Assembly (NCBI GenBank): GCA_024679065.1 | Contig: JAGIQG010000001.1 | Location: 48,918,001-48,982,000, forward strand | Length of the DNA: 64,000 bases | Direction of reading: 5' to 3' | Source: Sphyrna mokarran | Lineage: Eukaryota | Shown: positions 11,959 to 54,740 of the stretch, in pieces | How the letters are laid out: the number at the start of each line of letters is the position of its first letter | Numbering within the stretch: position 1 is the stretch's first letter | Notes under the pieces: model-generated | What the model was told of the DNA's origin: nothing | What the model saw: only the letters and a program-made list of their open reading frames with translations | Database searches by the model: none | Translations under genes and position numbers: made by a program

Positions 11959-13417
11959 AAAGCTTTTTAAGAGCTGCTGCACTGATGATGCTATCTTCTC
12001 TAACAGAACACTTTAGATATGAAAATTGCACAAAGGAAATGATTAAGAATATGGAATTTAGTTAACTCTGTGGAAGCTGGTGAATATAACCTTCCATACA
12101 ATGAACACATATGTGCAGATGAATTCTGGCCCAGTATTAGAGTTGTCCCTTAGAGTTTTGTCCAACACAATCTCAGCTGTAAATTGCTACTTGCATTTGG
12201 GCTGTCCTGCCATAGGACCACAAATAGTTAATATTCAGTGGCTTGTCATGAAAGAACCACATAGGATATGCTTGTACTGATACCATGGAAAGGGCAACAT
12301 CAAAGAGGTTACAGATAGCGATAGAACATTTTGTGACACTTGGAGTATGTACTTGGCACAGAATAATGTTCTTCTCTGTACAACATTCATTTGATCAAGG
12401 TTTGGATCAAAGAAAATTGGGTTGTGCAGCCAGCATTAATTCTGTCTGTTTTAGCTGCCATGCTGATTGCATTGCGCTTTTAGGGAAGTTGTTAACAATA
12501 CAGCCCATCCCTCTACATTGCATATACTAACACCGGCACATATCGGAGTTTTGTTGCAGAAGCAATCAGTTATCAACTGCATGTAAAACTGTACCCTTAC
12601 AAGTGCTCTCCTTTGCAAATGGTTCCATTGACCAGTACACTGTGGCACAGTAGTTCAATGATTTTAACAGTGCTTCTCAAAACATAAGTAACAATAGCTA
12701 ACAAACAGGTGCACATTTACCTAAATTCCTTCAATAGTCAGCAGTAAACCTTTAACATTTTGCATCAACTGCAGTTTCCAGAATTTAGAATTATATTGTA
12801 TTGATTGCAACAATTTCTGAAATGCGAGAGAAAGCAATCATTACACCAACTGCTCAGTAAATGACTTTTAATAACTCCTTTATCTGCCCAATTATGTACT
12901 CACCTATTTAGTCATCCTGAGACACTCACTTTTCCAACCAGTCATGCAGGGATACCCACTCAGATTTCTTCCCCTCACCCAACATTCACAAACCTCAGAC
13001 AATATTTCTTTATGAAGTATTTTAAACAAGCAAATTTTAATATAAACACCAGCGCACTTAGCTCTGATGCACGTATATTTTGTCTGAGCGCTGTTATTAT
13101 CTGCAATCAGACTTCCTTCATCGCTTTTCCATTCTGTACTTCAGAAGGTTTGTAACTGTCACCACTAACCTCTTAATTAAAAACTGTAGTACAAGTAACA
13201 TGTATGTGATTCAAGTACTCAATGTAGCAGAACAAAAATATACTCGCATCATAGGCTTGGTTGAGGATGAAAAGATTGTGAAATATGCACTTTATATTGC
13301 TGACTGAAAGGTAAAGAAGATTTTGGAATTACGTGGTTTCATTTGAATGGGCATAGCTAATGTGGTAAGATTTTGAAACAAGAAAAAGTAATTGCCTCTC
13401 TGTTTTAATCATAGAAA

Positions 13418-13830
13418 GAACTCAGTAAGAATTTAGCAACATCAATTTTAAATCCAACCGATTTATTTGATAGTAAATTTGCGAGCTTTCGACACTCTTG
13501 TGCCTTCGTCAGGCAAATACAGTGTTCTGGTCTGCAATAGCACACGTATCAACACAGACAGTCATTAGAATGCGAATCCTTACATCTAACCTGCTATTCA
13601 AGTGTTAAAGTGGCTAACAATGTGTGTGAATGGAATCCTAAGCATTGGTTAGAGAATTGTGTATTTTCTCCAGACAGCACAGTAAGAGAGGTTTTTTGCT
13701 AACCCAGGCAAGTTACGGGGATTACAGATCGCAAATTTACTATCAAATAAATCGGTTGGATTTAAAATTGGTGTTGCTAAATTCTTACTGAGTTCTTAAT
13801 ACCCCAGTCCAACGCCGGCATCTCTACATC
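13418..13830. mobile_element. Short inverted-repeat Penelope-like element (family 1) with 13-bp TSD
   Basis: Inverted arms 13416-13484 and 13729-13797 differ at one base; 33-nt 3' extension; TTAATCATAGAAA at 13405-13417 and 13831-13843. Confidence 0.85.
13477..13518 (-). ncRNA. Minimal type-I hammerhead ribozyme motif (intact core)
   Basis: AUUUGC-CUGACGA-A-GGCAC(AAGA)GUGUC-GAA-AGCU-C-GCAAAU: 6-bp helix I, 5-bp helix II, palindromic AGCU helix III. Confidence 0.8.
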
Positions 13831-13832
13831 TT

Positions 13833-14170
13833 AATCATAGAAACCCTGCAGTACAGAGAAAAGCCATTTGGGTTATTGACTCTGCACCGATCACAATCCC
13901 ATCCTGGCCCTACACCCACATCCCTACATATTTACCCACTAATCCCTCTAACCTACACATCTCAGGGCACTAGGGACAATTTAAGCATGGCCAATCAACC
14001 TAACCCGCATGTCTTTGGACTGTGGGTGAAAACTGGAGCACACAGAGGAAATCCATGCAGACACAAGGAGAATGTGTAATCTCGACACAGCCAGTGACCC
14101 TAGTTGAGAATCGAACCCAGGTCCCTGGAACTGTGAAGCAGCAGCGCTAACCACTGTACTATTGTGCCGG
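13833..14170 (-). mobile_element. HE1/V-SINE, tail type A
   Basis: B box GGTTCGATTC, central domain and TTTCTATGATT tail. Confidence 0.85.
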
Positions 14171-14312: not shown

Positions 14313-14540
14313 GGCAAGATATTACAGATGCTGGTTCTGAAACAAAATGCTGGAGAATCTGAGCAGGTTTGACAGCATCTGTGGAGAGAAAACAGAGCCA
14401 ACGTTTTGAATCTGGATGATCCTTTGTTAGAGCTGGTGAAAAATCTGGTGAAGGATCATCTGGACTCAAAATGTTAGCTCTATTCGCTTTCCTCAGAAGC
14501 TGTCAGACCTGCTGAGATTTTCCAGCATTTTCTGTTTTTG
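14313..14540. mobile_element. Palindromic Penelope-derived element (family 2) with two decayed hammerhead motifs, 15-bp TSD
   Basis: Inverted arms around about 14437; CTGGTGA-AGGATCATCTGGACTC-AAAATGTT and an opposite-strand copy; TAAACTCCAGATTAA at 14298-14312 and 14541-14555. Confidence 0.75.
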
Positions 14541-15339
14541 TAAACTCCAGATTAATTGTCCATCTAATCTATTTATTTAGGCCCATAGACAGCTTCCCTC
14601 CTCTGAGGGCTGCTTTACGAACAATTTGTACAGAGCTTATACATCAAGAATAAAACTTTCCTTCTGGGTTCAGGGTCCTGACCCCACATCATATTGGTAA
14701 TAATTGGCCAATACAATTTAATGGCTGGGGGATATACTTGCTATCTAATTAAGGATGATGGGCAGGCTCTCAAAGATGTCAGACCAACTCGAGGTCTTCC
14801 ACCATCATATCCTTCTGTTACATGTGAGGGAAAGAGATGATAGCTCCGTACTGATTTACTTTCTCAGACCATTTTGCATAATGGAAGAAAAGAAATGCCC
14901 ATAGGTGTTAGATTACCTTTGAGTTGGGGAAATGATACCACAGGAAAGTCTGTGGCTGCAGTGTAGCCAGGTAGTTTTCCTCATGTTAGAAAATCTGCAT
15001 CATGGCAAAAACGTGGACCAAATCTTTTTAAAATTGGTAAATTTTGTCTTTGGTATCTGATGGAAAGAAATCATCAAATTCAGTCTGAGTGATTTTGTCT
15101 ATGGCATCATTGTAAAATCAGATTTGATACTTTCACTTTCAAATCATCTCTCCACAACAAGTTATCTTCCTCTTCATCTATTGAAGACCACCAATACCAA
15201 GCACCAAAATAAATCATCAGAAGCATCAGCATTGCAATTTTACAATCCGAGATGTACAACTACTGTGGAGATAGACAGAAAGATCTGGGGTTATACAAAC
15301 AACAAAAAAGCAAACCAATTGTATTTGTTTGAAAATATC

Positions 15340-17350: not shown

Positions 17351-19699
17351 CTAAAATTCATCGTGAAAATGACAAAAAAAATGCCAGTTTAGATTGTTTA
17401 GATTAGATAATTTAGATAAATAGCAGCTTCATGTAGCTCACCAAATGGGTCATCTTAAAAATATTTGACAATGATGGTTAACATGATGTAGACACATTAC
17501 TGCTTTTTGAAAGAATCCACATGTAGAACAGTTTATTGAAAGCAAAAGGTGAATCATATATACTGTGTGATAGAATGTGTCAATTTAGCCTGTGGCCATA
17601 TTCAGTCTGATTGAAACCAGCCCAGGCTGGTTGGAGAATGGCCTTTGCTGGCTGTAAGGCTGTGAAGGCACTAAGTAAACTCAATCTCAAAATAACTTCA
17701 GTTAGTCCATGTCAACAGTGCAATAGAGACTATCCTACTCCAGCAGATATAAAGAGCGGCTGTTGGAAAAATGGAAAGTTATCCATTAGTGTTATAAGGT
17801 TAGTTATTACAGCACAATATTTGGGTACAATAAAGGAAACTCTGCTCTGCAACTCTTGCTGTGTCTGGTTTGGGAGTGGATGATAAAAGTGGAAACTGGA
17901 CTTAATTCTTCAGCACTAATGCATTTTTACTTGATGAATACAAAATTCCCACAAATAGTACATAGGATTGCATAAGTGGTTTTTCAAGAATGTGTATTTA
18001 TTATGTACTGGGAAGTTGTTATAGCAACTTCTCAGTCTAAGGTGACTGAGAACCACTATGCTGTGTGCATCCTAATTGTCTAATAAGGAATATATTAAAG
18101 AGTCACAGATCATTGCATTTTGTTGAAAAGGTTTGTTGTTTAGGCATGAACCAGTTCATTGTTGTTACTTGTGTGTGACTTATGCACACAATGCAGCCCC
18201 AGTGAAAAAGCTGACGGGTAGTGCTGACTTGACAAGTGTTTTATTATGACAGAAATCTTTCATCCAGCTATTTCTAAGAAATGACCAGGAAACGTGTCTC
18301 TGACTTTGACATAAGAGACGTCAGTCAGAATTGACTGTATGTGAAGTTTAGAATCTATTCAGTTTTGCAAAGTAAAGTACTTTTATCAGATTAACTGCAA
18401 TTCTTTTCCGATTAATTGGTTACTGTGCTAGCAAATCAAAGCGTCATTATGTTTAACAGCAGTATACCGAAGGTTCTTTTCACAAACTCATCTAACAAGA
18501 TACGGGGAGAAGAACATAGGAGTTCAGTATGACCAGGCTGGAACTGAGCTCCTTTGAAAACTCAGGTTTGACTCTTTATTTGAAAGGACAATCTGAGAGG
18601 AGAAAATTCAATTGCCACTCATTCCTCCATTTCATTTCAAATAATTTTGTCAATTGTAGTATTCATTTTGCCTTGGAAAATCTTTTATTACAGATTTACT
18701 CTCACACCAGCAATGTTGGCTATAGTTTGTAGATGAGCAGATTCACATAATGTCTAGAAATTCGCATTAAGACCAGCTGGATGGTTATCCATCTCAAGTT
18801 CAACTTCCGGGCATCTTGAAGCGCCACTTCTCAAATTCCTCTATGGACTGATTGTAACATGCAATATTAAGACATCGCCCTGCTTTGAGAGGAGACATAT
18901 GCTGCAACCTATTAGAGCTACAATTCCTACTGACTGTTAACAATTTCCTGTAGTTTTCCTGAATTGGCTTCGTTGTTTCCTTGCATTGTATTTGTACATT
19001 AGTCAGCCCAATCCAACAAAGCCAATGTTATATATATAATTTTTGGAAGACAGTGCTTTGACTGCCAATGACACCAGTAATAGAAAGCCATAATGTTGAA
19101 AATGTATTTATTATTTTAGTATGAAAAATATTGTGAAGAAAGGTTAAAAAAAACCTTTGAAAAAGAGGGATCTTTAGGGTTTTAAATATTTGTGCATTAC
19201 TTTAGTCCAGTGCAATAACAAAATAATGCAGAAGAGGAATTCATCACATCTGAAGTAATCCAGCCAGAGCTTTCAAGATTATGGAGGAATTTAGAACTGC
19301 AATGAAATTGATGGAAAATGTGAGGATCAGATGTATATTACTGTTGATGTTAATAGGATATTCTTGTTTGAGAAAGTTCTCTAAGTAAAAAGACAACAGG
19401 GATAGTTGGCTGAGTTTAAAACCAGCAACTGAAAGCCTCAGTAAAGGAAATTCAATAGAAAGGTCCAAATGCATCTAAAAATGTTAGGAATGCACAAGGT
19501 GATAAAACATAACAAACTCATTTTTTTAAATGATTAACCTTTAATTAATTAAGATGGTGGGTACGGTGGCAGGTGGGTAGTGGGATAGCTGGAAAAAGAG
19601 GAAGCGGGTGAGTTGATTGGTAAGTGAGTAGGTAGTCATGTGATCAAACGAGAGAGTTAGGGGAGTTGCTAAGAATAATTGGCAGTTGTTTAAAAATAA

Positions 19700-20026
19700 A
19701 GGGCAGTGTGGCACAACAGTTAGCACTGCTGTCTCACATCACCAAGGATCCAGAATTAAACCTTGGGTGTCTGTGTGGAGTTTGCACGTTCTTCCTGTGT
19801 CTGCATGGGTTTCCTCCCAGTATTCCGGTTTCCTCCCACAGTCCAAAGTTGTGCAGCTTAGGTTGATTGACATGCTAATTGCTTTTTAGTCTCCCAAGAT
19901 GTGTAAGTTAGGGGGATTAGTAGGGTATATACATGGGTTACAGGATAGGAGTTGGGTGGAATTGTTTTTGTAGGGTCAATGGGCCGAATGGTATTATTCT
20001 GCACTGTAGGGATTCTATGATTCTAT
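19700..20026 (+). mobile_element. HE1/V-SINE, tail type A
   Basis: Ends GGGCCGAATGG...CTGCACTGTAGGGATTCTATGATTCTAT. Confidence 0.85.
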
Positions 20027-20328
20027 AATATTTTTCCCAATCCTTCTCTTACCATAAACATTTCCAGTTTACTTAAATCTAGTCCTATTGTTTGCTTCAA
20101 TAGATTTCCCCAATAACTTAATGTAAAAAATAGTTGCCTTTTCTTCTTTAAAATATCTATCCAACTTCCATCTTGTTACTATCTTGTTTTAAGTTGTTGT
20201 GCTTTCATATTTGTTTTCCTCAGCAATGGTAACAATCAAATTTGCAGAACAAAGCTCCTCCATATACTTGAAAAATTCAAATGACAAGAGGTGGCCTTAT
20301 CTACTGGGGAATTAGAGACTGATAAAGT

Positions 20329-21205
20329 TCATAGAATTATTGAATGTGGTTGTGCACAAGGAGGCCATAAAGCCCATCGAGCATGCGTCAAAACAATTTC
20401 ACCTATGCCCCATCCCTGTAACCCCTCGCTATTAGGGCAGAGGCTAGGAATAGTGAGACAAGTACCTCACTTCCTCACTCCCAAAGCCTGTTCACCATCT
20501 ATAAGTCACAAGTTAGGAGTGCGATAGAAAACTCTCCACTTGCCTGGATGGGTGCAACTTCAATGACACTTAAAAAGCTTGGCTCCATTCAGGACAAAGC
20601 AGCCCGTTTGCTAAGTACCACATCCACAAGCATCCACTCCCTCCACCACCGATGCTTAGTAGCAGTGTGTACTATCTACAAGATGCACTGTAGTAATTCA
20701 TCAAAGATCCTGAGATAGTACTTTCCAAATCCATGACCACTTCCATCTATTAGGACAAGGGCAGTGGGTACATACGATCACCAATACTTGCAAGTGCACT
20801 TCCAAGCTTCTGACCATCCTGACTTGGAAATATATTGCCATTCCTTCGCAGTCACTGGATCAGTGTTATGGGTCAGCCTTACAGTACAATGACTGTAGTG
20901 ATTCAGGAAGGCAGCTTACCATCATCTTCTCAAGGGGTAACTAGGGATAGGCAATAAATGCTGGCCAGCCAATGATCCCTATTTCCCACGAATGAATTAA
21001 AAGAAGTCCTTATTGGCATTAAGGGACAATTTAGCATGGCCAATCAACCTAATCCACACCTCTTTGAACTATGGGAAGAAACCAGAGCAAATCCATGCAG
21101 TCACAGGGAGAATGTGCAAACTCCTCATAGGCAGTGACCCGAGGCTGGAATCAAACCTGGGTCCCAAGAACTGTGGGGCAGTAGTGCTAACCACTATGCC
21201 ACTGT
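20329..21205 (-). mobile_element. V-SINE type A split by a LINE insertion (parts 20329-20435 and 21008-21205)
   Basis: Tail and head halves are collinear on either side of 20436-21005. Confidence 0.7.
20436..21005 (+). mobile_element. CR1/L2-group LINE 3' end (second family)
   Basis: Frameshifted GQRLGIVRQV...IYKSQVRSAIENSPLAWMGA...IQDKAARL...SLHHR; tail CTAGGGATAGGCAATAAATGCTGGCC...GAATGAATTAAAA. Confidence 0.7.
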
Positions 21206-22294
21206 GCTGCGTGGGTGGTAGGGAGGAAAGAAATCTATGTTAAGCAGAATCAACAGCACAGAAAATGATCATTTGCCCCATCTGATTAGGTGATGACTAT
21301 GTCTTCCAGAGTCAAATTGAATTTTTATCTTAAAATAGCCCTTAAAAAGTGCAAATAGTGCCAACAGTGGAGCTCATGTTATTTTTAGTGTCTGTGTATC
21401 TAAGAACAGCTTGTGTAGATCATTCAGGATTTAAGACAGTAGTCTGAAAACTTTGGTATTTTTAAGCAGTAAGACTGTTAGATTGATGTCACTGATATAA
21501 GAATTACTTCAATAAAATAAATAGGGGTCACTAACCAAGTTAAGATTCAAAGGAAGATTTATCCACTGAGGCACACTTCCATTAACTTACGAGGTTACAA
21601 ATATTTGTCGTAAAAATAGTACAGATATAAAGCAGTGGCAAGTCTCAGCATTAATAAAATAATCTGTATTTATTGAGCATTAAAAGGCCACTGGGAAAAA
21701 TTTGTGGAGAGGACATGTTTAATTTGTCATTTTTTTTTCAATTGAAGGTCAAAGTTCCTTTTATCTCATTTAATTATGTAAATAATTTCTGTTTGCTTTG
21801 TATAGATAGTCAAGGACATCTTGCATATGAATGCCAATAAAGTTTTAATGGTCCCTGTGATACATCATGCATGTTTTTTCCATACAATGGCAATATGCCT
21901 ATAAATAATGATCTTTCTTAGCTGACATTTTCACTCAGTAGCCATTAACCCTTTAGGATTTCTATTAAAGATAAGGTTTGTCTTAAATCTCTGTCATTAT
22001 GGAGATATTTTTAATGTTTTTTGTATTGAGTACAGTGTACCAATAATCACTTTATCCTCAGTAAAAGCAAGTAATTTATACAATGGTAAGGATCTCATAA
22101 ACACATCTGTTTTTGTCAGATTTATATCTGCAATTGCTTAAAGATTCTTCTTATTGTTACAAAATCTCTTTTAAAATTACATTTTCTTCTATTTACTTCA
22201 CTCTATTGTATCACATCCTCAGGCCAAGTGTGAAAGCACCCAATTCTGATTAGAAATTTGAATATAATTCATTTCATTTTTGGACCCGTGAACA

Positions 22295-23610
22295 TCACAG
22301 TATCAGAGAATTGTTATGGCTCATTGTGTCTACACTGGCTCTCCAAATACGCATCATGACTTAATGCTATTCCCCTGCCTTTTACCCATATCCCTGCATA
22401 TTTGCATTCAAGTAATTACCTAGGCTAAAGGTAAAGGTGAAGTCTTGTGGGGGTTAACAGGGATAGGGCGCTGGAGAAGGCGTGGGTAAGACACTCCATC
22501 AGACAGTCAATGCAGACTCAATGGGCTGAATGGCCTCTTTCTGCACTGTAAAGAGTCTGATTTTATGAGGTCCCAAGTGACTCTTGACCACTTTCAACTT
22601 TGGGGAGGGAGAGATGACTGGTGGCAATTTAACTTGAGGATCACCACACTTCAGGCAACAGGCAAGGTTGAGAAAACCTACACGAATAACCTCAGCCCTT
22701 AGGTGTGGGAATTGAACCCGTGCTGTTGACATTGCTCTGAATCATTATGAGCCATCCACCCAAAAAATTATCTAATATTCTTTGGAATGACTTAATTAAA
22801 CCTACTTGCAGTATGCTTTCAGACAGAGCTTTCCAGACCTAAACCACTCGTTATGTGAAAAGTCTTCTTACATTATATTTGCTTTTTTTTTGAAAATCAC
22901 TTTAAATCTATTTCCCCTCATGCTTAATCCTTTGACAAGTGGGATAAGTTTCTCCCTATCTACTCAGTCCAGCCATCTCTTGACTTTGAAGATAGAATCA
23001 TAGAATCCTACAATGCAGAAGAAGGCTATTCGGCCATTGAGTCTGTGCCGTCCACAATTCTACCCAGACTGTATCCCTATAACTCCATACATTTATCCCA
23101 GAGAGCCCCCCTGACACTAAAGGGCAATTTGGCATGGTCAATCCACCTAACCTGCATATCTTTGAGCTCTAGGGGGAAACCAGAACACTCAAAAGAAACC
23201 CACACAGTGACCAAAGTAGGGAATTGAACCCTGTCCCTGGTGTTATGAGGCAGTAGTGCTAACCACTATGCCATTGTACTGCTCTATCTCTGTTTAATCA
23301 TCTCTGAACCTTCTTCTCTCCAAGGAAAACAATCCAACTTTTCTAATTTGTCCTCATAACTGAGGTTTTTCACCCCAGGAAATAAGTGAAGTTTCTCATC
23401 CCTCCAAAACTTTTCTACATTCTGTCCAAAACGTTCACATCCTTCCTATAGTGTCAGAACCATACACAATACTTCAGCTGAGGCATATACTTGAGTCTTG
23501 CATAAGTTCTGCATGATGTCCTTCTCTTGTACACTATGTCAGTATTAGCCCAGGATACTATATACTTTATTAACTGGTCTCTCTATCTTTCCTGTCATGT
23601 TCAATGAAAA
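22295..23610 (-). mobile_element. Old CR1 3' region interrupted by SINEs (22430-22570 tail, +; 22575-22760 other tRNA SINE, -; 22993-23280 V-SINE A, -)
   Basis: Collinear CR1-like pieces (TTCTCCCTATCTACTC, CTCCAAGGAAAACAATCC, CCTTCCTATAGTG) between recognisable SINEs. Confidence 0.6.
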
Positions 23611-23649
23611 CAAAGGGGTCAAGGTGGGGTAAAAATTAATCATCTGAAG

Positions 23650-24155
23650 ACCCCTTTGTCTTCATTTTATTTAATTTTTTACTGTTCTTACCTTTTATTT
23701 ATTGTCTTTCTTTGTTCTTCATCCCTCCATTCTTTTCACCTATTTATTCCCCCTTTCCTTACGTTTCATCCCCCTTGCTTCCCCTTTCCTCTTTTTCTAA
23801 CTTTAATCTCTCTCCCATACATCCCCCCCCCCCACCCTTCCCCAACTTCATCTGTCAGAATTTACCTCTGATTTCACTTTTTCTGCCATTTGGCCATTCA
23901 CACCCTTTATTCATTCTACAGAATGCCATTAGCAACCTTTCTTCCGGTTCCAGTGGCTATGACTCATCTTTCATTCCCCCTCCCTCTGCAGTATAAATAT
24001 CACCCAGTTTCTTTGCCTTTTAGCTTTGACAAAGAGTCATCTGGACGTAAAACATGAGCTGTTTTCTCTCCCTACAGATGCTGCCAGATCTGCTGAGATT
24101 TTCCAGCATTTTCTCTTTTGTTTTCAGTTTCCAGCGTTCATAGTAATTTCTTTTA
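23650..24155 (+). mobile_element. Penelope family-2 3' end: pyrimidine-rich tract plus decayed hammerhead motif
   Basis: TTGACAAAGAGTCATCTGGACGTAAAACATG followed by CAGATGCTGCCAGATCTGCTGAGATTTTCCAGCATTT, as at 14450-14540. Confidence 0.65.
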
Positions 24156-24189
24156 ACCCTTCCTTTTACCTCCACAAAAAACTCAAGCA

Positions 24190-25890
24190 AGTTAGTAATT
24201 TTTTTATCAATCTATGATAGTTCTTCCTAATCAACTCACATTTTCCATTTCTAGAAGCTGATGTTAAACTAACTGGTCTGTAATTGCTGGGGTTATCTTT
24301 ACAACCTATTTTGAATGAGAGCATTATATTGCAATTCTCCAGTCATCTTGCACGTCCCCTGAGTCTAGAAAAGACTGGCCAGTGTGCCTACAATTTCGTT
24401 CTTCACTTCCTTCAAGATCCTTGGCTACATCTCATCTGGTCTTGGTACCTTATCAACATTCATACTGAAAGACTATTTAATACTACCTCTTTATCAATTT
24501 TGAGCCCCTCTCAGGATAAAGTTTCCTTCCTTACCACCTTGGCCTGGGTAGCATCGACCTCCATCATAAAGATATAAGGTATTCAATTAACACCCCGGTT
24601 ATGCTCCCCAGTCTCCATGTGTAAATTCCCTTAAATCCCGAATCGGCCTTACTCATTCACTTACCACCTTTTACTATTTATATGTCTGTCAATGACTTTG
24701 GGATTCCATTTTAAGTTGGCTGCCAGTCTTTTCCCATAATCTCACTTCACTTCTCTAATATGCTTTTGTTCGCTTCCTGCCTGAGCCTTCTGGATCCTTC
24801 TTGGTTCTCAACTATATCTACTACCTGACACCTATTATGAGCATATCTTTTCTTCCTTATATTAATTTTTATCTCCTTTTTGATCCTGGGAACTCTGGAT
24901 TTGATTGCCCATGCCTTGACCGTGTCTGAACCTTTCCTTTTTCGAAGATAGTCCATGTTCAGCTACAGTTTTTCCCACCAATCTTTCATTCCCACCCAAC
25001 CTGCCCAGCTCTGTTCTTGTCTCAGTGAAGTTTGCTCTCCCCCAGTTAATTATTTTTTGCCCACTGTCCTTTTCCAATATCATCCTAAACCTTGTTATAC
25101 AATGATCACTATCTCCTCAATGTTCCCCCACTGACTCTTGATCCATTCAGTCCACCTCATTTCCAAACACCATGTTCACAATGCATTCTGTCTTGTTGGA
25201 GTGGGCGCACAATGCTGTAGAAAATTGTCCTGAATGCAATCCAGAAACTTTTGCCCCTCTCTACATGTTACACTAATAAGTATTTTTTAAATGGAGTGGC
25301 ACAATGGCACAGTGGTTAGCACTGCTGCCTCCCGGGGACATGGGTTTGATTCCAGTCTTCGGACACTGTCTGTGTGGAGTTTGCACATTCTCCCCATGTA
25401 TGTGTGGGTTTCTTCTGGATGATCCAGTTTCCTCTCACAGTCCAAAGTTGTGCACATTCAATGGATTTGCCATCCCACATTCTCCCTCACTGTGTCCAAA
25501 CAGGTGCTGGAATTGGCAACAAGGGGATTTTCACAATAACTTCATTGCAGTGTGAATGTAAGCCTAATTGTGACTAATGAATAACATTTAACTTTTATTA
25601 TACTACCACTGTCTCTGTGTACATTTGGATAATTAAAGTACACCATTATAACTACTCTATAATGTCTATATATCTCTAATTTCCCTGCAGATTTGTTCCA
25701 CGACATCTTTCCCACCAGTTGACAATCTATAGATTGTAACTGCACTTGTTATATTCCTCAGTTCTAGCCACATTTATCCTGTTCTTGAACTGTCTGGGAC
25801 ATTCTTTTTCTTTAGCATTGCAATGCTCTCCTGAACCAATACCACCATCCCTCCTTTTTTACTTCCCTATCCTTTCTGAATGTTCTGTGC
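24190..25890 (-). mobile_element. Old CR1 ORF2 endonuclease/linker region, split by a SINE
   Basis: RVVIMVYFNYPN (decayed GDFN motif); INWGRANFTETRTEL. Confidence 0.65.
25293..25597 (+). mobile_element. V-SINE, tail type B
   Basis: Head, central domain and hairpin tail. Confidence 0.85.
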
Positions 25891-38084: not shown

Positions 38085-38785
38085 AGTAAAAAGTCTCACA
38101 ACACCAGGTTAAAGTCCAACAGGTTTATCTAGCAGTATGAGCTTTCAGAGTGTTGCTCCTTTATCAAGTGAGTGAAAAGTTGCATTCACAAATAGGGCAT
38201 AGACACACACATATATTTAATTGCAAGATAATGGTCGGAATGCAAGTCTTTACAGGTCATCAAGTCTTTACCCTCGAGTATGACATGAACCCAAGATAAC
38301 ACCAGGTTTAAGTCCAACCGATTTATTTGATAGTAAACTCATAAGCTTTTGGGGTTTGTCCCTGACTTAAACCTGCTGTTGTCAGACTTCTTACTGTGTT
38401 TACCCCAATCCAATGCTGGCATCTCCACGTCATGAACCCAAAATCCCAGTTGAAGCCAGATTTTGAGTTCATGTCACATTACATGTAACCCCCACTATTT
38501 GGCCTGGGCTTACAAAATCCTACTAATTGTCCTGGCTTGAGATAATTCACACCTTTTTTAACCTGTCATTATCCCTCTTTCCACTTGCATTGTCTGTACC
38601 TGTGAAGATTTGATTATCTGTAAAGGCTTGCATTTCAACCATTATCTTGCAATTAAGTTTATATCTATATATGCTCTGTTTGTCAATCCAACGCTCCACT
38701 CATTGATGAAGGAGCAGTCCTCCGAAAGCTCATGTTGCCAAATAAATCTATTGGACTTTAATCTTGTGTCATGAGACTTCTCACT
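38085..38785. mobile_element. Inverted Penelope family-1 element containing a nested mini-element (38298-38431)
   Basis: 38085-38271 is an imperfect inverted copy of about 38600-38785; decayed hammerheads on both arms; inner element flanked by ATGAACCCAAGAT / ATGAACCCAAAAT. Confidence 0.8.
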
Positions 38786-52987: not shown

Positions 52988-54740
52988 GTACATTGAAACA
53001 TAGAGACTAGAAGCAGGAGTAGACCATTTGGCCCTTCGAGTCTGTTCTGCCATTCATTTTGATCATGGCTGATCATCAAATTCAATATCCTATCCCCCCT
53101 CCTTCCACCCATATCATTTGATCCCTTTAGCCCCAAGGGCACAGTGGTTAGCACTTTTGCCTCACAGTGTCAGGCACCCAGGTTTGATTCCCTGCTTGGC
53201 TCACTGTCTTGTGGAGTTTGCACATTCTCCCTGTGTCGGTGTGGGTTTCTTTCGGGTGCTCAGGTTTCCTCCCACAGCCTAAAGACATGCTGGTTAGGTG
53301 AATGGCCATGCTAAATTTCCCTCAGTGTACCCGAACAGGTGCCTGAGTGTGGCAACTAGGGAATTTTCGCAGTAACTTAAAAATTTATTTATTAGTAAAG
53401 TTTGTTTATTAGTCACAAGTGAGGCTAACATTAACACTGCAAAGAAATTCTGTGAAATTCTCCTAGTCACCTTACTTCGGCTTCTGTTTGGGTCAATGCA
53501 CCTAATCAGCATGTCTTTTAGAATATAGGAGGAAACCAGGGTGCTCACAGGAAACCCACACAAACACAGGGAGAACTTGCAAACTCCACACGGACAGTGA
53601 CCCAAGTCAAGAATTGAACCGGGATCCTGGCGCTGTGAGGCAGCAGTACCATTGTTACTACCGTGCCACCCACCGTTGTCCTACCATGATGCCCTTGCAA
53701 TGATAATTTCATTGTGGTGTGAATGTAAGCCTACTTGTGACTAATAAACCAATGTTACTTAATTTCTTGAAATCAGAAGATTTGTGCTTTAAATGGCAGA
53801 ACCCTTAGGAACATTTACATAAAGTGGGATCTGGGCGTGAGGGTCCACTGTTCCCTAAAAGTGGCAATACAGGTGGCCAAGGTGATTAAGAAGGCACATT
53901 ACATGCTTGCCTTCATTGGCTGGGTCATTGAGTACAAGAGTTGGAAAATCATGTTGTAGCTTGGTTAGGCTGCATTTAGAGTATTGCGTGCAGTTCTGGT
54001 CACCACACAGCAAAGGATGTGGAAGCTTTGGAGACAGTGCAAAGATGGTTCACCAGGATGTTGCCTAGTCTTGAGGGTGTTGGCTATGAGGAGAGATTGA
54101 ATAAACAAGGATTGGTTTCACTGGAAAGATGAAGCTGAAAAGAGATCTGATAGAGTTAAAATCAGGGTGGATAAGTCAGAGGCTTTTTCATTGGTAAATG
54201 TGTCAATTACAAGGGGGCACAGATTCAAGGTGGAGAGGGGGAAAGTTTAAGGGAAATGTGCAGGAGAGATTTTTCATGCAGAAAGTGAAGGGTGCCTGGA
54301 ATGCATTGCCAGAGGAGGTGGTAGAAGCACGAACATTAGCAACACTTAAGAGACATCTGAATGGGTACGTAAACAGGAGGGGAATAGAAGGATCCAAGCC
54401 AAGTAAGGGCTGTTTTTTTTTAGTTTAGGGCATCGTGATTGGCACAGGTTTAGGGGGCCGAAGGACCTGTTCCTAAGCTGTACTTTTCTTTGTTCTTTGT
54501 TCTTAGTTTTGGCCTCAACCAGTTGCCGTGGTAGTGAATTCCAACATTCACCAACATCTGGATGAAGAGATTTCTCCTCAATTTCCTTCCAAACAAATTG
54601 ACCCCTTATCCTCAAACTATGACCCCTAGTTCTGGATTCCCCACCATTGGAAACACTCTTTCTGAATCTACCTTGTCTAACCCTGTTGGAATTTTATACA
54701 TTTCTATGAGATTTCTTCTCACTCTTCTAAACTCCAATGT
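52988..54740 (-). mobile_element. CR1 3' end split by two opposed type-B V-SINEs (53138-53750 + and 53379-53672 -) and a + strand CR1 (about 53800-54502)
   Basis: Collinear CR1 pieces at 52988-53137 and 54503-54740; inner CR1 reads ERFFMQKVKGAWNALPEEVVEA. Confidence 0.75.

Follow-up and report, generated by a model that had tools for sequence, protein, structure and literature searches.

A head-to-head Penelope-like insertion with a minimal hammerhead motif in Sphyrna mokarran, and the start positions of its sister arms

The insertion and its hammerhead motif

The window, which is the whole stretch of 64,000 nucleotides analysed here (Sphyrna mokarran assembly GCA_024679065.1, contig JAGIQG010000001.1, positions 48,918,001 to 48,982,000 of the forward strand), contains a 413-bp insertion at 13418-13830. 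It lies between two 13-bp copies of a target-site duplication (TSD), TTAATCATAGAAA, found on the plus strand at 13405-13417 and 13831-13843; the last 2 nt of the left copy overlap the end of the left arm. Positions within the element are numbered from the predicted hammerhead cut, with +1 as the first base past it (13482 on the minus strand). The left, tail-less arm (13416-13729, minus strand) is a nearly whole pLTR (3' UTR) in antisense, from about -258 to +65/+67, without 11 bp at 13564/13565. The right, tailed arm has a segment in common with the left arm at 13729-13797 (plus strand, -2 to +67) and is followed by the 33-nt extension, the Penelope 'tail', at 13798-13830 (plus strand). The matching parts of the two arms (13416-13484 and 13729-13797) are 69 bp each with a single mismatch at 13442, and T13729 is common to both arms. 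An earlier note on this DNA had described a perfect 13-bp TSD, inverted arms of about 69 bp with one mismatch, a 33-nt extension after the plus-strand arm, retained CpGs and no open reading frame (ORF). All of these are borne out: the CpGs are kept, and no ATG ORF of at least 20 aa lies inside the element, though the left arm opens with the final 8 nt, TAA stop included, of the ORF of a Penelope-like family (13722-13729, minus strand). The two-armed anatomy also supports the inverted truncated structure proposed there. Compared with its nearest relatives among L002-L030, the copy has 7-8 differences over 311 aligned positions plus the 11-bp deletion, which suggests that it is fairly young, as had been claimed, but not brand new.

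A minimal type-I hammerhead is located at 13477-13518 on the minus strand, with a 6-bp stem I, CUGACGA, an extra A, a 5-bp stem II, GAAA, a palindromic AGCU and C17. The predicted cut falls between 13483 and 13482 on the minus strand. A minimal-hammerhead descriptor has one match in the 64-kb window and a mean of 0.0 over 200 shuffles; an Rfam scan of the window, which is uninformative for minimal hammerheads, has no match at the gathering score. In 24 family variants the core columns are invariant or nearly so, with N7 free, and the stems covary: 6 of 11 pairs carry two-sided changes and 90.8% of cells are paired, compared with 24-50% in slid controls, although 10 of the 24 rows were chosen by a pairing-demanding descriptor, so this pairing figure is inflated. 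The complete minus-strand hammerhead that had been claimed therefore reads as described from 13518 to 13477, and, judged by its sequence conservation, it is genuine as a motif. In fold predictions the 42-mer by itself takes an active-like fold with probability 0.08, and with flanks or in the window context no stem pair exceeds a probability of 0.14. Family positions +3..+5, which belong to stem I, and loop II are far more variable among subfamilies than the adjoining sequence. The motif resembles the minimal hammerheads described for metazoan Penelope-like elements, or PLEs (Cervera and De la Pena 2014, PMC4209133), in having no real helix III, a palindromic 15.2-16.2, G10.1-C11.1, an extra base before stem II, high within-genome variability and opposite-strand copies 100-700 bp apart.

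The window also has other repeats. An older relative of the element's family lies at 38085-38785; its inverted arms are 78.6% alike and flank a piece in which the tail and an ATG are followed by a jump to the end of the ORF and the pLTR. At 53158-53759 there is another decayed inverted repeat. The older palindromic insertion at 14320-14545 belongs to a second repeat family, which we take to be Penelope-like and which has decayed too far to be mapped; its inverted arms are 75.5% alike, and a decayed core resembling a hammerhead lies close to the centre. A SINE-like repeat, presumably resembling shark SINEs, lies just 3' of the 413-bp element at 13864-14170.

Family identity and paired arms

The assembly that holds the window comprises 2.77 Gb. 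A 27-mer from the arm has 4,065 exact matches in the genome, which sets a lower bound on the number of close arms, and its reversed control has 0. Subsampling a 19-mer by arbitrary flank bases gives 289 and 98 matches, which scale to roughly 18,000-25,000 arms. Seven matches with the same flank at G000:C982:9660038-12767367 suggest a locally duplicated block.

In sister copies the left arm runs on upstream into the end of an ORF. In one of these copies (L076), a frame of 696 aa matches RVT_1 (E 6e-9) and, towards its C terminus, GIY-YIG (E 3.6e-4, under the curated cut-off); the window arm abuts the stop of this RT/GIY-YIG ORF. The claimed Penelope-like origin is supported, since the arm is the end of an RT/GIY-YIG element in the sister copies. 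Full-length copies have the ORF start codon directly after the tail, at +101, and the tail-to-ATG junction has 517 genome matches (up to 1 mismatch); the same pLTR both precedes and follows the ORF. The layout of L076 is TSD, inverted tail-less pLTR, ORF, pLTR with tail and TSD, and the window element reads as this layout minus the ORF. By eye, L076 has a CX4CxxC linker (CHSNLCKTC) and CCHH-type C..C..H..H residues, and L065 has a DKG motif (ADKG). A CX2-5CxxC linker upstream of GIY-YIG, DKG and CCHH are marks of Neptune and Nematis elements, with the linker common to both clades (PMC8557442). The motifs read by eye point to a Neptune-type family, the linker being found in Nematis as well.

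At L083:3300-3830, both arms alike have an internal part of the ORF joined to its final 8 nt, at the position where the left arm in the window starts. An uninterrupted 881-aa endonuclease-RT-like frame lies inside a pLTR of the family at L102:4005-6650. This frame, which is presumably CR1-type, was rejected as the family ORF because it belongs to a different retroelement inserted in the pLTR.

Sister arms were sampled in two sets. Set A consists of the loci of the first 100 of the 4,065 27-mer matches, with overlapping loci merged, and set B of 91 of 100 listed 19-mer matches (of 289) plus 30 of the 98 from the second subsample. Mapping with a 19-mer anchor (up to 1 mismatch), which is blind to arms truncated beyond about +40, gave 296 arms, or 295 without L035, a duplicate of L032; L156 was left out as a duplicate of L101. 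The 3' ends of the 295 arms form two clusters, at about +58..+71 and +99..+107. There are 81 head-to-head pairs. In 75 of them a tail-less arm is combined with a tailed one, and the TSD is at least 7 bp long, mostly 10-14 bp, in 76; either of the two arms may be the longer. Head-to-head pairing is thus routine for this family. Short hammerhead-bearing insertions of 140-290 bp with TSDs are abundant. Junctions vary from copy to copy, and the -258/-2 junction of the window has no second case among the 81 sampled pairs. A DNA search of the genome returned 3,197 candidates, and among the 40 that were scored there is no 413-bp end-to-end match except the window copy itself.

Loop II agrees between arms in only 24 of 40 pairs. 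The arms of some long insertions (L198, L204, L206 and L255) differ by multi-base variants at +3..+5 or loop II, which suggests that two RNA templates may have been used in one event. In L061, L191 and L212 the junction spacers are built from short, repeated stretches of the element, a pattern that several restarts of priming might leave.

An inverted pLTR with a tail of 30-40 bp is a layout described for EN+ PLEs (Arkhipova et al. 2013, PMC3846280; Craig et al. 2021, PMC8557442). The shark family is like EN+ Neptune-type PLEs in combining RT with a C-terminal GIY-YIG, a CX2-5CxxC linker and a hammerhead in the pLTR, and in forming head-to-head inverted truncated copies with a tail at one end only and a TSD; unlike these elements, the window copy keeps just 8 nt of ORF. 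The insertion is probably a truncated head-to-head copy of an autonomous Neptune-type PLE, in which both target strands primed reverse transcription of likely uncleaved RNA at two sites and the cDNAs were joined. The target would be cut with a 13-nt stagger, and each nicked strand would prime reverse transcription of the element RNA from one of two internal initiation sites, one at the tail end and the other about 35 nt upstream. The two cDNAs would then be joined head-to-head at their 3' ends. For the window copy, one cDNA would have run about 325 nt and the other would have stopped 1-2 nt past the cut site, most likely near it by chance.

The two-strand nicking and extension, the two initiation sites and the uncleaved template are proposed by analogy with in vitro work on Poseidon (PAc) of Anolis carolinensis, whose protein nicks both strands and extends them, initiates internally at two sites bounding the tail and does not require ribozyme cleavage (Frangieh et al. 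2024, PMC11167929). As in PAc, the two putative RT start sites of the shark family bound the tail, roughly 60-105 nt downstream of the cut, and both target strands would be used. The two belong to different clades, and the PAc start codon is inside the hammerhead whereas the AUG of the shark family follows the tail at +101. The evidence for PAc is biochemical and that for the shark family is genomic.

Arm starts relative to the predicted cut

Starts of the 295 arms are concentrated at -59..-30 (112 arms), with 15 at -89..-60, 18 at -29..-1 and 33 at +1..+30. This hot spot lies just 5' of the hammerhead core and is a candidate RNA 5' end; it corresponds to 13512-13541 (minus strand) in the window, where the left arm reads through it. 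Both sets show the pile-up, as do arms with and without the tail, and it peaks at -45, -38 and -33. It is not described in the available portions of PMC3846280 and PMC8557442, and a literature search whose coverage leaves most subscription papers and Repbase outside found no description of a truncation hot spot or twin priming in PLEs or of shark Neptune elements.

The starts within a pair correlate (Spearman 0.67), and 23 of 81 pairs have starts within 2 nt of each other compared with 4.6 by permutation. In several pairs both arms end at the same base with an untemplated spacer between them, and TSD-bounded single-arm copies also start in the hot spot. Taken together, these observations suggest that the RNA physically ends there and that short microhomologies determine where the final join falls. 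We judge the odds to be about even that the pile-up reflects such a 5' end, probably one set by transcription starting within the pLTR. A TATA-less promoter in the pLTR is described for Drosophila Penelope (PMC2377424). Of 18 copies with at least 900 nt of ORF, only 1 starts at -59..-30; starts lie between -14 and +52 in 11 and farther upstream in 6, which argues against the transcription-start reading. The base before the -38 starts is G or A at a ratio of 89:11 in 100 listed of 385; in 54 of these 100 there is a CAG overlap with a partner that stops at -33, and TTG duplications account for another 13, which leaves a G:A of 22:11. G precedes 26 of the 100 listed -45 starts, and the case for a cap-derived extra G is equivocal. 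Public RNA, compared as assembled contigs (X1, X2, X3, X7 and X8 of 10 runs), contains related sequence and gives no start or end sites. An intron 3' splice site near -45 was also considered and rejected because the upstream sequence is not a shared exon.

It is unlikely that the pairs arise from a single cDNA that snaps back and copies itself, the pile-up then being due to RT stalling at a hairpin or to palindromic microhomologies. Such a fold-back would suit the subfamily markers usually shared by the arms of a pair (73/77 and 47/51) and the many junctions on short palindromes or microhomologies, among them the CAG-type overlaps of the -38 starts; a 5-bp hairpin at -54..-36 is partly predicted, and self-priming has been proposed (PMC3846280). 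However, a fold-back copy has to match its template and can be no longer than it. Yet which of the two arms is longer varies, and the multi-base variants at +3..+5 or loop II set the arms of some long pairs apart. Single-arm copies show the same hot spot, and the pairs that stop at the same base on each side of an untemplated spacer also speak against this explanation.

The preferred reading, in which both strands prime on separate sites of an uncleaved RNA, also has to be weighed against the claim that the start of the right arm records a ribozyme-cleaved template. The plus-strand arm does start within 0-2 nt of the end of the predicted cleavage product, as had been noted. Since it starts at T13729 or C13730 (-2 or -1), its first 1-2 nt, C17 among them, lie 5' of the predicted cut, so it includes the base 5' of the scissile bond. 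Copying from hammerhead-cleaved RNA with a +1 end would therefore need one untemplated base and 1 nt of microhomology, and the extra C equals C17 only by a 1-in-4 coincidence. The partner arm reaches -258, and its template would thus be uncleaved.

The proposed check, a histogram of arm starts, showed no peak at GCAAAT (+1) in the 295 sampled arms, and the pile-up lies 30-59 bases upstream. The mapper places 15 of 295 starts at -5..+5. This class was inspected by eye because the mapper over-extends arms through the variable +3..+5 and bins loop II starts at -17; most are joins at +6 or later, and only about 5 start at -2..+3, one of them exactly at +1 (L191). Since sister arms start far more often at -59..-30 than at the cut, ribozyme-cut RNA is likely not the usual template. 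Start-here patterns have 385 matches genome-wide at -38, 339 at -45, 206 at +1, 81 at +11 and 54 at -5, counts that are not strictly comparable because subfamily ranges differ and small deletions are included. When 30 of the +1 loci were inspected, about 21 proved to be true truncations, and many of these belong to older subfamilies that the sample does not include; with deletions and other subfamilies removed, the +1 excess over -5 is about 2-fold. A position-free start pattern has 1,193 matches. Read by eye, the first 100 listed comprise roughly 14 internal variants; starts number 4-7 at each position in -5..-2, 12 at -1 and +1 combined and 13 at +2, and about 39 fall at +3 or beyond. Such a gentle rise, spread over -5..+6 without a spike at +1, suggests that cleaved RNA is at most a minor template and that the window junction is best read as chance.

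A minor class copied from cleaved RNA, to which the right arm might belong, is quite unlikely to explain this junction. Apart from the position of the arm start, the window subfamily has a full 6-bp stem I and an intact core, and a few insertions (L191, L273, L275 and L279) have both arms ending at +1..+3. More arms start at +1..+30 than at -29..-1 (p=0.05), and the weak excess of about 2-fold at or after the cut may possibly reflect a minor cleaved-template route. On the other hand, the self-complementarity of GC/GCA with stem I alone can favour +1 joins, and the low predicted pairing of the hammerhead in the window context is unfavourable to cleavage.

Finally, the 413-bp palindrome is very improbably a separate non-autonomous retrozyme-like or SINE-like family that copies itself, although the short hammerhead-bearing insertions with TSDs are abundant and animal non-LTR retrozymes are reported as tandem hammerhead units derived from pLTRs (bioRxiv 10.64898/2026.07.22.740005). 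The insertion is like these retrozymes in being non-coding, with a type-I hammerhead and pLTR-related sequence, but they are tandem head-to-tail units with a hammerhead each, whereas the window copy has one hammerhead and inverted arms, the sampled pairs are head-to-head, and the copy is a single head-to-head by-product of a coding element. It has no twin with the same junction among the pairs or the scored candidates, and every common variant occurs in both short and ORF-bearing arms, with subfamily make-up differing modestly between short and long arms (chi-square p 0.004-0.04). The retrozyme-like family suggested in the earlier note is not supported, as the sequence is the end of an RT/GIY-YIG element.

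The ribozyme and the biology of the family

Core position 8 is A, with C3 unchanged, in 40 of 206 arms, and in 38 of 40 pairs the two arms have the same base there. Among 1,172 matches, the first 100 include 70 that read CA and 4 that read TG, which indicates that A8 is inherited and is not the result of CpG decay. Stem I is at most 2 bp in 83 of 204 arms. A G8A change disables hammerhead catalysis, and A8 is taken to do so here because the C3-G8 pair is lost. The hammerhead of the A8 subfamily is therefore likely dead, yet the subfamily has amplified. A G8C change is described as disabling the hammerhead (PMC11167929). Minimal PLE hammerheads cleave poorly (PMC4209133), and the shark family differs from that set in having large subfamilies with C3 and A8, not the compensated U3-A8 of Schistosoma, and large subfamilies with a 2-bp stem I, both of which have nevertheless spread. 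These subfamilies suggest that the ribozyme may be dispensable in vivo, as we infer from the distribution of core variants, although a dimer might still be cleaved if the partner has an intact core.

The insertion itself is an ordinary stump of a known class, and the family-wide statistics matter more. It is a serious but tentative possibility that about 20,000 arms record a mode of insertion in which the two strands are primed at different sites, cDNAs run off at a capped RNA end 33-55 nt upstream of the cut, the ribozyme is dispensable and cleaved RNA is at most a minor template. If so, run-off from starts at the 5'-proximal tail would map the promoter and explain the excess of 140-290 bp insertions, and the amplification of A8 or 2-bp stem I subfamilies by hundreds to thousands would mean that the ribozyme is not needed in vivo. 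The family pattern bears on how PLEs build their inverted ends and on the role of the hammerhead, both of which are discussed in PMC8557442 and PMC11167929. The genome would provide in vivo counterparts of the only in vitro study, with a separate priming site for each of the two strands and cleavage not required, and -59..-30 offers a precise candidate position for the start of the RNA.
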